NCBI GenBank assembly: GCA_030059675.1
Contig: JANVYQ010000002.1
Span: 18,260 to 82,259, forward strand
Length of the DNA stretch: 64,000 nt
Direction: 5' to 3'
Origin: Candidatus Pelearchaeum maunauluense
GTDB lineage: Archaea > Thermoproteota > Nitrososphaeria_A > Caldarchaeales > Caldarchaeaceae
Shown: in pieces, positions 45,251 to 49,831 of the stretch
How the letters are laid out: each line of letters starts with the position of its first letter
How positions within the stretch are numbered: the stretch's first letter is position 1
The notes under the pieces: generated by a model
The model's input: the letters and a program-made list of their open reading frames with translations, nothing else
Databases searched by the model: none
Told to the model about the DNA's origin: nothing
Made by a program: the position numbers and the translations under genes

Positions 45251-45736
45251 TTGGAAGCGATCATGGTTACGTTGCCTGAGAGGGTTTTGAGGGAGCTGAG
45301 TAAGAAAGCTGAGTCCGAGGGTGGAACTTTGGAGGAGATCCTTAATGAAGCTGTTCTCAACTACTGCGACGTTAGGGATCCTGAGGTTAGGGCTGAGAGC
45401 CACTTAAAGCTTTCCGAGAAGTATCTCAGGGAGTGTGAGGAATTCTTAGCGAGGGGGGATTATGCTCAGGCCTCCGAGAAGGCTTGGGGAGCGGCGTCTC
45501 AGATGGTGAAGGCGATTGCCGCGAGAAGGGGGATGGAGATAAGGAGCCACGGGGAGCTACATAGGTTTGTCAAAAGGCTTAGGGAGGAGTTCAGAGATGA
45601 ACAGGTCTCAACATTTTGGCTATCAGCGGTGTCGCTGCACCAGAACTTCTACGAAAACTGGCTGCCTGAGGATATGGTTAGAGACGGGGTAGAAAACGTT
45701 AAGAAGCTTGTTGAAAGATTAAAGAGGGTTATCTAA
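45251..45736 (+). CDS. RHH (CopG-like) domain fused to PaREP1-family (HEPN-like) domain protein, paralog 1
   Basis: N-terminal MVTLPERVLRELSKKAESEGGTLEEILNEAV is ribbon-helix-helix. C-terminal ...GDYAQASEKAWGAASQMVKAIAARRG...SLHQNFYE is the PaREP1 pattern shared by the five tandem paralogs. A TATA-like CTATATAGC lies upstream. Confidence 0.7.
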   Translation: MEAIMVTLPERVLRELSKKAESEGGTLEEILNEAVLNYCDVRDPEVRAESHLKLSEKYLRECEEFLARGDYAQASEKAWGAASQMVKAIAARRGMEIRSHGELHRFVKRLREEFRDEQVSTFWLSAVSLHQNFYENWLPEDMVRDGVENVKKLVERLKRVI

Positions 45737-46612
45737 CAAATCATCTTAAGAGAATCCATAATAATTTAAGAACCCATAGAGTTACTTGAGAAGAGAAGGC
45801 AATTGCAGTTGCATCTCATTATAATAGAAGAGTTAGGCTCTTCAGGCTTAAAAGGCAGATAATCCTTTTTAACACGTAAGTCAGGCCTAAGTAATGTGTA
45901 GCTCAGGAAGACATTTTGAAAGTATAGATGATTCACGTGCTACTACTGTCAAGCGCTTTCGGAAGGAATAGTCCTATGAGAAAGCCTAAGACAATATAAT
46001 GAATCGAAAGCGTGATGATACGCCAGAGATCTCATAAGCTAAGAAATTCCTTAACTTTATAAGACTCCACATCGATACCACGTTAGGGTACGGATTGCCT
46101 AAGATTTGGCGAATATTAGGAATCGAGATGGAGGCCAAGTATTGGGGTAATAATCTTCATCGGCCTAGGGGTAACAATCGTGTCAACCATCCTCCTTATG
46201 GTGATGCTCACACCGATGGAAATTGACCTAATCATGCTGCTACTAGGGATTACAGGAACTTTCACATCAGCTTTAGCACTCACGATAGATGCAACGAAGG
46301 AGATTCGTCCAAGAACATGTAATAAATAACGTTCAAAACATCAGCAGAACACTCCAGCAACAAACGAAACCCTACAAAGAATCCTTAACACGCTACAGCA
46401 GATACGCGACAAACTATAAAGACTAAAAATAATCAACTCTGCGAGTCATGCTACTAATGTTAGCAAGCGCGACGCCTTCAATATCTATAATGCATTTATA
46501 AATCGACTATGATGTTAGCCAGTTTCTCGGATAGAGTTTATGTAAATCTTTAGGTTAGTTGGATCTACTCATTAGAGGGATAAAGAATAAATGAGGGTTT
46601 ATACCTTTTTTA

Positions 46613-46957
46613 GTGTGGAGAGGGTTGGGTAGGCTTTTAGAGAGAAACGTTAGGATTCTTGGCTTGTCTATGAAGCTGAAGCATTGGATAGCGGTGTTTA
46701 CGTTCCTAATTATAGGGATCTTGGGCTTCCTAACAGCTATACTGTTATCACCGCTCTTACTGGATTTGATAGGCGTAGCCATGGGGATAACGGGTATACT
46801 GCTCAGCTCCCTATCAGCTATATATGGGGCTACGAGCGCGCAGGTTGATACGTTTAGGCATGAATTTAGGGAGTTCAGGAGAGACGTGGTGGATGAGCTA
46901 AGAACGATTAGAATTACTCTAGACGAGGTGCTTAAAGTATTGAGAGGTGGCGGGTGA
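46613..46957 (+). CDS. small membrane protein with C-terminal FRHEFREFRR motif; truncated paralog at 46140..46330
   Basis: Two to three TM helices (LLDLIGVAMGITG) followed by DTFRHEFREFRRDVVDELR, which echoes the xFRQEFR repeats of the 42932 protein. The upstream fragment SIGVIIFIGLGVTIVSTILLMVMLTPMEIDLIMLLLGITGTF lacks an in-frame start codon. Confidence 0.5.
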   Translation: MWRGLGRLLERNVRILGLSMKLKHWIAVFTFLIIGILGFLTAILLSPLLLDLIGVAMGITGILLSSLSAIYGATSAQVDTFRHEFREFRRDVVDELRTIRITLDEVLKVLRGGG

Positions 46958-47024
46958 ATAGTCAGGAAAGGTTAAAGCTTTAAGAATGCCTTAATAACTC
47001 TTAAGAAACTGAGTTAATGGAAGC

Positions 47025-47513
47025 ATGTCTATTGTTCTGGAACTTCCTGATAGGCTATTGGTAAAGCTTAAGGAGTTATCGGATTCTAGGAATATTTCCT
47101 TAGAAGAGGCGATACTTGAGGCTATTTATGAATACGTTGAGGAGATGGATCCTGAGATGAGGTCGGAAATGTATCTTAAGCTATGCGAGAAATACCTTAG
47201 GGATGCTAAGGAGCTATTGTCTAAGGGAGACTATGTGCAGGCTGGTGAGAAGTTATGGGGCGCGGCCGCCCAGATAGTTAAGGCAGTAGCTGCTAGGCGG
47301 GGGATCGTGCTTGATAGCCACGCGAAGCTATGGGACTTCGTAGCCTCACTACGCGTTGAGCTGAACGACCCCGATATAGGCAGGCAATGGTCAGTAGCAA
47401 ACTCGCTGCATAAGAACTTTTACGAAGCTCAGGTCAGCCCTGAGTTAGTCAAGGACTACGCGGAAGACGTTAGAAAATTCGTAGATAAGCTGAAGCTATT
47501 AATAACGAAGTGA
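47025..47513 (+). CDS. RHH-PaREP1 family protein, paralog 2
   Basis: MSIVLELPDRLLVKLKELS... (RHH) followed by GDYVQAGEKLWGAAAQIVKAVAARRG...SLHKNFYE. Confidence 0.7.
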   Translation: MSIVLELPDRLLVKLKELSDSRNISLEEAILEAIYEYVEEMDPEMRSEMYLKLCEKYLRDAKELLSKGDYVQAGEKLWGAAAQIVKAVAARRGIVLDSHAKLWDFVASLRVELNDPDIGRQWSVANSLHKNFYEAQVSPELVKDYAEDVRKFVDKLKLLITK

Positions 47514-47630
47514 CTAAGCATAAATGGAAGATAATACTACTAAATGAGACTAGATGCATATTCAAGCTAACCTGGGAGGGCAAGCAGAGAAATACATTAT
47601 ATAAGGGCACGGAGTTCGTTGAAGTAGGTC

Positions 47631-48138: not shown

Positions 48139-48283
48139 GTTTCCAAAATTCAAAGACTTGAGAAGTTCTAATTCAAATGAAGTAATAAAGATTGTTTCAA
48201 AGATTTTCTCTTAACAAAAGAAGATCATCTATTCTGGGAAAGAACAAGTATAGGTTTAAGGTTAAAAGAACACATAGACCGTA

Positions 48284-48655
48284 ATGTGCTCTCGGAGAAT
48301 CGTAGTTATTGGTCTAGACTCTGTTCCCTTGTCATTGTTATTTAATGAGCTTAGAGATGAGATGCCGACTATTAAGAGGCTGATCGAGCCCGGTCTTTAC
48401 TCGGTTTTGGAGAGCTGCCATCCACCCATTACTGTCCCTGCTTGGATGGTCATGATGACTAGCAAGAATCCTGGGAGACTTGGCATATACGGGTTTAGGC
48501 ATAGGAGGGGCAGCTCTTATAGTGAGATAAACATAGCTAATTCAACATACGTTAGGAGGGAGATGACTGTATGGGATATCGTCTCGAAGCATGGGAGGAG
48601 GTATGCGCGGCGACTTCTGCATCAACGAGTGGCTTATCAGGCACGCCAGAACTAG
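48284..48655 (+). pseudogene. alkaline-phosphatase-superfamily (nucleotide pyrophosphatase/phosphodiesterase or iPGM-like) N-terminal fragment
   Basis: IVVIGLDSVP...PPITVPAWMVMMTSKNPGRLGIYGF matches the metal-binding N-terminus of AlkP-family enzymes. The ORF stops after 123 aa and is cut off by the next PaREP1 gene. Confidence 0.5.
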
Positions 48656-48789
48656 CAATCTGGACCTTCAAAAACTCAGGCCTAAAATACCTAGCAATAG
48701 GAAACTGCCTCCTAAAAAGGAAGTAACAGGTCAAAGCACATTGAAAAAGCCTAAACACATCTTCGACAACGTTCAAAAAGAGCAAATAC

Positions 48790-49290
48790 ATGAGCATCAC
48801 CGTTCCTAAAGTAATAGTAGAGGAGCTGCGGAGAAGGGCGAAGAGAGCAGGAGCGTCAGTCGATGAATACCTGCTAGACCTTTTAACGAGGGACTCAGAC
48901 CCAGAGGAGGCTTGGAGAAAATACCTAGCAGGGGGCGGAGCAGCTCCTAGATCAGTCCGAGAAGAGCTGGGGAGGGGCGATCTCCGACAAGCGAGCGAGA
49001 AGCTATGGGGAGCGTGCGCGCTAGCGGTAAAAGCACATGCCCTAGCGAAGAAGGCAAAGAAAATAGAATCTCACGCAGAACTCTGGGAATACAAAGACCA
49101 GGTAGCCCAGGAGATAGGTGAGTGGATAAGGCCAGCGTTCAGGCAGGCAAGCCTAATGCACACAAACTTCTACGAAAACCAAGCAACGAAAAAGGACATA
49201 GAGGACGTGCTAAGAGAGGTCAAAAATCTAGTAGAGGCAATATCACAAAAACTGAAGCAGCGACAAACAAGCAATAACAAGCACGGCTAA
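48790..49290 (+). CDS. RHH-PaREP1 family protein, paralog 4
   Basis: MSITVPKVIVEELRRRAKRAGASVDEYLLDLL (RHH) followed by GDLRQASEKLWGACALAVKAHA...AFRQASLMHTNFYE, which contains an R-x5-H HEPN-like motif. Confidence 0.7.
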   Translation: MSITVPKVIVEELRRRAKRAGASVDEYLLDLLTRDSDPEEAWRKYLAGGGAAPRSVREELGRGDLRQASEKLWGACALAVKAHALAKKAKKIESHAELWEYKDQVAQEIGEWIRPAFRQASLMHTNFYENQATKKDIEDVLREVKNLVEAISQKLKQRQTSNNKHG

Positions 49291-49345
49291 AAACCAGACT
49301 ATTTCAGTAAAGCTATAAGCCAGGAGATAAGTGATTGCTTAAGGA

Positions 49346-49831
49346 ATGGAAACGATACAGGTCCCTAGAAACGTTAAGCAGGCCCTTAGGAGGATAGCTG
49401 AGGAGAGGGGATTAACTCTAGGGGAGGCGCTGGTCGAATTGGTAATCGACGCGTCAGACCCAGGTGAGAGGTCGAGAGCCTACATAGAGGCGGCCCATGA
49501 GCTTATAGCACAGGCAGGCAGAGAGCTGGAGGAGGGGAGCTACAGGCAGGCATCCGAGAAGATATGGGGAGCGGCGGCCCTAGCTATAAAGGCACACGCA
49601 TACAGCAGCGAGAAGAAAAGGCTAGCATCACATTCAGAGTTATGGCAGTATAAGAGCAAGATAGCAGAAGAGCTTGGAGAATGGATACACGACGCCTGGG
49701 CACAGGCTAACGCCATGCATACAAACTTCTACGAGAGATGGGCAGACAAACAATCAATACAAAAAGCGTTAGACAGCGTAGAAAAACTAATAGAAGCAAT
49801 ATATCAGAAAGTAACAAACAAAAACCCTTGA
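49346..49831 (+). CDS. RHH-PaREP1 family protein, paralog 5
   Basis: METIQVPRNVKQALRRIAEERGLTLGEALVELV followed by GSYRQASEKIWGAAALAIKAHA...AMHTNFYE. Confidence 0.7.
   Translation: METIQVPRNVKQALRRIAEERGLTLGEALVELVIDASDPGERSRAYIEAAHELIAQAGRELEEGSYRQASEKIWGAAALAIKAHAYSSEKKRLASHSELWQYKSKIAEELGEWIHDAWAQANAMHTNFYERWADKQSIQKALDSVEKLIEAIYQKVTNKNP

Follow-up and report, generated by a model that had tools for sequence, protein, structure and literature searches.

Ribbon-helix-helix–PaREP1 (HEPN) fusion genes of three old subtypes gathered in a variable region of a Candidatus Pelearchaeum genome

In the Aigarchaeota genome of Candidatus Pelearchaeum maunauluense, a window of 64,000 nucleotides (the whole stretch of DNA analysed here; contig JANVYQ010000002.1, forward-strand positions 18,260 to 82,259, with all coordinates below counted from its first letter) contains five neighbouring genes at 45251–49831 whose products join an N-terminal ribbon-helix-helix (RHH) to a PaREP1-type, HEPN-like domain. 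The question raised by this locus is whether these genes are a toxin–antitoxin (TA) or defence family that was amplified in place, as proposed in an earlier note made from the sequence alone, or a more ordinary gathering of known proteins. With high confidence the genes can be assigned, as ordinary members, to the RHH–paREP1 subfamily already described within the HEPN-T clade (PF05942), and the cluster can be said, with the same confidence, to bring together three ancient subtypes in a variable part of the genome that is low in GC and rich in gene fragments. A toxin or defence role of the RHH–PaREP1 proteins is conjecture.

The five open reading frames (ORFs) of the cluster all lie on the plus strand, where they had been placed by the earlier note. 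Copy 1 (45251–45736) likely starts at the ATG at 45263, giving 157 amino acids as in the NCBI protein P0001, and together with copy 2 (47025–47513) it belongs to subtype A, recognised by the motif LHQNFYENW. Copy 3 (47631–48139), which carries a one-nucleotide deletion, is of subtype C, with LHVWGFHE as in the Sulfolobus structure 2Q00, and copies 4 (48790–49290) and 5 (49346–49831) are of subtype B, with MHTNFYE. A sixth copy, of subtype A, lies on the minus strand at 59356–59728 and consists of a frameshifted PaREP1 domain in which a His has been changed to Tyr, with no RHH before it; the intact copies are therefore four (1, 2, 4 and 5). No further family member was found by the family hidden Markov model (HMM) among window ORFs of at least 35 amino acids. 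The spacers along the cluster measure 1.29 kb, 117 bp, 651 bp and 55 bp, so that, of the tandem array described earlier, the clustering and the shared orientation stand while the strict tandem layout gives way to a loose cluster.

Membership of the C-terminal domain in the PaREP1 family was judged by a score above the PF05942 gathering score of 24.4 bits, and the matches of the cluster copies are far beyond chance. Copies 1, 2, 4 and 5 score 100.8, 91.1, 76.6 and 83.4 bits (E-values 5.5e-29, 5.7e-26, 1.8e-21 and 1.5e-23), the N-terminal piece of copy 3 scores 44.5 bits (1.7e-11) and copy 6 scores 58.7 bits (6e-16). In the comparison with PF05942 and the HEPN families that had been proposed as a check, the PaREP1 matches were thus strong, while the general HEPN model PF05168 gave only sub-threshold matches to the intact copies; its score for copy 6 was 24.4 bits. 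For copy 1, AlphaFold2 gave a single-chain model, based on 63 homologues, in which the HEPN fold is seen; the model has a mean pLDDT of 94.1 and consists of an extended stretch (residues 1–5), helices at 6–18 and 23–34, and five more helices. When the C-terminal domain of this model was compared with solved structures by Foldseek, the top matches were 2q00 (the Sulfolobus PaREP1 protein), 2hsb, 1ufb, 1wol and the sacsin HEPN domain, and the sole solved relative by sequence is likewise 2jpu/2q00 (E 8e-7 with the single protein, 3e-12 with the profile). As modelled, the C-terminal domain is a HEPN-type helical bundle resembling the solved PaREP1 structure, in agreement with the earlier assignment. 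The NCBI proteins identical to copy 1 (P0001) and copy 5 (P0121) are named 'PaREP1 family protein', the former under Aigarchaeota / Ca. Pelearchaeum.

For the N-terminal domain, the cluster copies reach only 0.0095 against Pfam RHH models (RHH_5), 0.05 (RHH_1) and 4.6e-4 (FitA-like, copy 4), all below the gathering scores; within the 63-member family set, RHH_1 is matched by 11 members (best 5.8e-5), RHH_5 by eight (best 8e-6), FitA-like by three, and ParD, CopG_antitoxin and RHH_3 by one each. A profile of the first ~45 residues, compared with natural chains in the PDB, matched RHH proteins only, namely EndoAI/MazE (E 0.006), Arc (0.02), AvtR (0.028), VapB26 (0.05) and CopG (0.15), along with Mnt and MazE6, the remaining matches being designed repeat proteins. 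A G-x-S/T turn between the helices is a hallmark of RHH domains, and it can be read in the sequences of copies 1, 4 and 5 as GGT, GAS and GLT. Because the β-α-α topology of the model, this turn and the consistent family-wide RHH matches agree, there is high confidence, resting in part on the predicted structure, that the N-terminal ~40 residues form a ribbon-helix-helix fused in cis to the HEPN domain, as the earlier note had read them.

Whether the copies arose by recent local duplication can be judged from their divergence. Pairwise protein identity among them is 28–48%, the closest pairs being copies 1 and 2 (48%) and copies 4 and 5 (45%), and at the DNA level the only repeats among them are the segments coding for QASEKxWGA and HxNFYE. 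Each intact copy is closer to a protein of another organism than to any other copy in the cluster: copy 1 has 80% identity to P0002 from a Bathyarchaeota metagenome-assembled genome (MAG) versus 47%, copy 2 has 55% versus 48%, copy 4 has 54% versus 44%, and copy 5 has about 67–68% to P0123 from Nitrososphaerota versus 44%. In the loci that hold the orthologues of copies 1 and 5, the gene occurs only once. Among 80 related genome loci, each taken with 10 kb on either side, 68 contain one copy and only two contain four or five, and a cluster of the present size is thus uncommon in this sample. These comparisons indicate a cluster that gathers ancient paralogues of three old subfamilies instead of recent local duplicates. 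A neighbour-joining tree grouped copies 2, 3 and 6, a grouping that was distrusted because the sample was without subtype-C sequences.

A recently amplified, diversifying defence array, in which local tandem duplication was followed by fast divergence, was the origin suggested by the earlier note, and the co-orientation and clustering of the copies fit it, as does the observation of Parep genes in tandem (Anantharaman et al., 2013; PMC3710099). However, it is already contradicted by the low identities, by the restriction of DNA repeats to motif-coding segments, by the closer relatives in other phyla and by the single-copy orthologues of copies 1 and 5, and the gene fragments lying between the copies point to assembly by rearrangement, so that such an origin now appears very improbable.

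Decay of some copies is evident from their reading frames. In copy 3 the first frame ends at a stop at 47904–47906, and the domain resumes in the frame of 47633 and runs to a stop at 48137–48139. An intact metagenomic orthologue, P0241 (169 amino acids, 86% identity, zero gaps), reads across this junction as ...AMNLQDLINTARQRG... (LQDLIN), and since it is intact and ungapped, copy 3 has lost one base after 47903 (a C of 'gac ctg'). The frameshift that had been postulated for this copy is thereby borne out, and a programmed frameshift was ruled out, as the orthologue is simply in-frame. The RHH-less sixth copy, placed earlier at 59380..59728, is also real, extending over 59356–59728; stop codons eight codons upstream of its TTG mean that it is without an RHH. 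Its frameshift falls within the H-x-NFYE motif, where Tyr replaces the near-invariant His, and the family HMM matches it on two frames. With these two lesions copy 6 is a true pseudogene, a point absent from the earlier note, and it can be stated with high confidence that two of the six copies are decaying.

The architecture itself, treated as new when the locus was first described, has been known since 2009 and 2013. A HEPN+RHH fusion in paREP1 proteins, without an operon with MNT, was reported by Makarova, Wolf and Koonin (2009; PMC2701414), tandem Parep operons have been described (Anantharaman et al., 2013), and in Pyrobaculum oguniense the paREP1/8 genes were tied to strain-variable regions (PMC3558965). 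Like the published subfamily, the cluster proteins have ~160 amino acids with RHH and PaREP1 HEPN domains, keep the His of the HEPN motif without the Arg and stand in no MNT operon, and several copies per genome and tandem arrangement have been reported there as well; the differences are limited to the host, an Aigarchaeota MAG as opposed to Thermoproteales, and to the mix of three subtypes in one cluster. The fusion, the missing Arg and the tandem operons are all already published, and the finding is real but ordinary.

Across the 63 sequences P40, A70, K73, W75, A77, K83, A86, N128, F129 and Y130 are invariant, with S95, H96, H126, Q127 and E131 conserved in at least 90%. The canonical HEPN ribonuclease motif R-x4-6-H is absent from copies 1, 2, 3 and 5 and is found in 24/117 subtype-A and 7/57 subtype-B homologues, whereas the His preceding NFYE is present in 114/117 and 56/57, respectively. 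The R-x5-H motif attributed earlier to some copies therefore holds for copy 4 alone and fails as a feature of the family. By these counts the family retains the His and not the Arg, as published for the HEPN-T Parep1/8 clade, which 'lacks R but H is conserved' and in which other basic residues may stand in for R (Anantharaman et al., 2013). The near-invariant Lys, Ser-His and His-x-Asn-x-Tyr-Glu residues suggest that, even without the Arg, the domain has a genuine active or binding site.

A partner gene would be expected of a two-gene TA system, and it was sought around the relatives of the cluster. No NTP_transf_2 match, as for MNT, was found in the flanking ORFs tested. In the 80 loci, neighbours of at least 70 amino acids within 2.5 kb of any PaREP1 gene and small ORFs directly flanking RHH-less copies were compared; these searches returned only local synteny among related Dehalococcoidia, and no conserved partner gene was linked to the fusion across ~38 fusion loci. 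A separate upstream gene with a family-type RHH occurs in one or two loci beside RHH-less copies, where it resembles a frameshift or split; this search used the family HMM, with generic RHH outside its reach. In these searches neither an MNT nor another antitoxin was found adjacent to the genes of the cluster.

The reading favoured here, tentatively and at somewhat less than even probability, sees in each protein a HEPN effector, complete in itself and self-regulating, that acts on RNA or a nucleotide in conflict or stress response and is not half of a two-gene TA system. RHH domains are obligate dimers, so that the protein should be at least dimeric and DNA-binding; HEPN domains, too, probably work in pairs, their sites lying at the interface. 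Each RHH–PaREP1 protein would accordingly form a dimer without a partner: the N-terminal RHHs of two chains would join and attach to an operator, most simply one in the protein's own promoter, leading to autoregulation. RHH pairing would bring two HEPN domains together, and the polar set of Lys73, Lys83, Ser95-His96 and His126-x-Asn-Phe-Tyr-Glu could make up a non-canonical, metal-independent site that cleaves RNA or binds RNA or nucleotides, giving a conflict or stress-response effector that controls its own dose. The conflict-like pattern of deep paralogues, pseudogenes and a low-GC variable region with insertion sequences (IS) and gene fragments speaks for this, as do the RHH assignment, the conserved polar residues, the lack of a partner gene and the reports of 2009 and 2013. 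Several points weigh against it: the domain lacks the Arg on which catalysis by HEPN RNases relies and may therefore be inactive; a constitutive RNase without an inhibitor is hard to square with viability; the copy 1 model describes a single chain; a search upstream of the copies for a common operator or promoter motif returned only coding-motif repeats and, at copy 2, a few AT-rich palindromes; PADLOC gave chance-level matches only (E at least 0.004) and the NCBIfam scan no meaningful match for the cluster proteins; and in the literature searched no experimental paper on any PaREP1 protein was found.

The main rival, rated as possible though rather less probable than a self-regulating effector, is that these are plain one-component transcription factors, whose HEPN domain serves as a non-catalytic ligand-sensing or oligomerisation module and whose paralogues have different targets. 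This agrees with the loss of the canonical Arg throughout the family, with the absence of an antitoxin-like partner, with the short, confidently modelled linker that joins the RHH to the HEPN domain, and with the labels 'predicted DNA-binding protein' and 'transcriptional regulator' that some databases give to family members; the RHH β-strand residues also differ among the copies, as expected for different operators. However, a near-invariant polar set with two His and two Lys exceeds the usual needs of a scaffold, this type of HEPN domain is also plentiful in proteins that have no DNA-binding domain, and the patchy distribution, pseudogenisation and location in a variable region resemble conflict genes. 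An unlikely alternative is that the fusions are antitoxin-like neutralisers, which would heterodimerise with stand-alone PaREP1/HEPN toxins from genes elsewhere or obey MNTs in trans, blocking a composite site and repressing transcription. Makarova et al. (2009) took the RHH fusion as a link of HEPN to antitoxins; fused and stand-alone forms coexist in the family and, with copy 6, in the window, and in four loci (L009, L012, L016 and L024) a single fused copy is accompanied by a single unfused one within 10 kb. In most fusion loci, however, the fused gene is alone within ±10 kb, the sole stand-alone copy in the window is a pseudogene 10 kb off, and in HEPN–MNT systems it is HEPN that is established as the toxin (PDB 5yep, 7ae2, 8xdj). 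A more specific form of the self-contained effector, about as improbable as the neutraliser, is offered by analogy as a partner-less toxin and sensor in one chain. CapRel is a fused TA protein and serves as a model for such a unit. DNA-bound RHH dimers would restrain the HEPN RNase, a His–Lys–His set (H96, K73/K83, H126) could replace Arg–His in an RNase A-like manner, and the three subtypes would answer different invaders or stresses.

The neighbourhood of the cluster is that of a variable, decaying region, as its low GC and truncated genes suggest. From ~42 kb on, GC drops from 0.50–0.56 to 0.41–0.48 (with the exception of the 58–60 kb bin, at 0.52), and ~42–64 kb is rich in truncated genes, with glycosyltransferase pieces at 42095, 55093 and 55675 and an IS240-type DDE transposase split over two ORFs or frames at 51190–51788 on the minus strand (PF13610 on a 119-amino-acid piece). 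Between copies 3 and 4, the plus-strand ORF 48284–48655 matches PF01663 (Phosphodiest, E 3.4e-16) over profile positions 2–105 of 342, and by this match only the N-terminal third is present of what is elsewhere a type I phosphodiesterase / nucleotide pyrophosphatase gene, which agrees with the 'AlkP fragment' of the earlier note. Between copies 1 and 2, in the place of the 'membrane-peptide remnant' of the earlier note, lies an intact-looking ORF of 114 amino acids (46613–46957, plus strand), which is not a family member, has two hydrophobic stretches by eye and gave zero Pfam matches. Its C-terminal FRHEFREFRRD motif resembles repeats of the plus-strand ORF 42932–43768, which encodes 278 amino acids with an acylphosphatase domain (PF00708, E 8e-22) and, towards the C-terminus, an extended run of FRDYRQEFRDFRQEF-type repeats; at the DNA level a tandem repeat covers 43285–43594, its periods being 42, 63 and 105. 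The ~0.9 kb at 45737–46612, between copy 1 and the small ORF, holds no ORF longer than 56 amino acids, an Rfam scan of the whole window, this gap included, was empty, and no tRNA genes were found in the window. Downstream of copy 5, at 50255–50916, are two ORFs (60 and 145 amino acids) without a Pfam match. Short AT-rich palindromes lie upstream of copy 2 alone (46959–46996, with more up to ~47017), and TATA-like boxes are present upstream of copies 1 and 3, as is CTATAAG, by eye, upstream of copy 5; these are no evidence of regulation.

Directly after copy 6, a retropepsin-like Asp-protease ORF (PF13975/PF13650) lies at 58998–59366 on the minus strand. At the locus of the Nitrososphaerota orthologue of copy 5 (L081), one retropepsin-like gene lies 230 bp upstream of that orthologue and a second 3 kb off (7369–7767 and 11500–11868). 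A link between PaREP1 genes and such proteases was considered and set aside as weak, with ~7/80 loci within 10 kb. The same locus holds a canonical HEPN+MNT pair 5 kb upstream (2155–2845) and a TnpB gene (Cas12f1-like_TNB) 1.6 kb downstream of the orthologue (10096–11379), surroundings consistent with a mobile or defence-island neighbourhood.

The Sulfolobus solfataricus protein ORF c02003 / P95883 (PDB 2Q00, 2JPU) has no RHH, unlike the cluster proteins, and the HEPN-T proteins AF0298, TT1696 and ST0689 (2HSB, 1UFB, 1WOL) have 16–19% identity, no RHH and other motif variants. HEPN–MNT systems, as in Shewanella (SO_3166/SO_3165, 5YEP) and Aphanizomenon (7AE2/7AE6), comprise two genes, with MNT AMPylating a toxin that has the canonical R-x4-6-H, whereas the cluster proteins have no MNT partner, no conserved Arg and a DNA-binding domain fused in cis. 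With the RHH repressors and antitoxins (Arc, CopG, Mnt, MazE/EndoAI, VapB26, AvtR) their N-terminal 40 residues share the profile and the β-α-α topology, but the matches are weak (E 0.006–1), and what follows is a folded HEPN domain and not a disordered toxin-binding tail.

The family as a whole comprises 1,368 clusters at 50% identity (E ≤ 1e-3), in fused, stand-alone and two-matched-stretch forms, the last including proteins of ~250 amino acids with two matched PaREP1 stretches. Full-length homologues of the cluster proteins with 50–57% identity occur in Pyrobaculum, Thermoproteus, Caldivirga, Vulcanisaeta and Pyrolobus; full-length homologues are also present in Pyrofollis, which is cultured, as are Pyrobaculum, Thermoproteus, Caldivirga and Pyrolobus. 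Among the related loci (L030, L033, L035 and L051-L080), the fused form is also found in Bathyarchaeia, ANME-1/Methanophagales, Alkanophaga, Archaeoglobales and Nitrososphaerota, and genomes of Dehalococcoidia, Acidimicrobiia, Planctomycetota and SAR202 commonly carry PaREP1-type HEPN genes that lack an RHH. On a Dehalococcoidia chromosome (L060, 7383–10342), five PaREP1-domain matches lie ~400 bp apart in overlapping ORFs; either a tandem array of several copies or a repeat protein could account for them.

The range of the family is thus far wider than the 'thermophile / crenarchaeal' range of the 2013 papers. The literature of that year had posed whether PaREP1 proteins are toxins with an unidentified antitoxin, and this long-standing question of function is made no more tractable by the present locus, which brings no new architecture and is of modest importance. 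Its ~4.6 kb do hold intact subtype A and B copies together with a repairable copy of subtype C, which are usable as test constructs. If the single-chain toxin and sensor, improbable as it is rated, were to prove true, the three divergent subtypes that stand side by side in this genome would each answer to other invaders or stresses.

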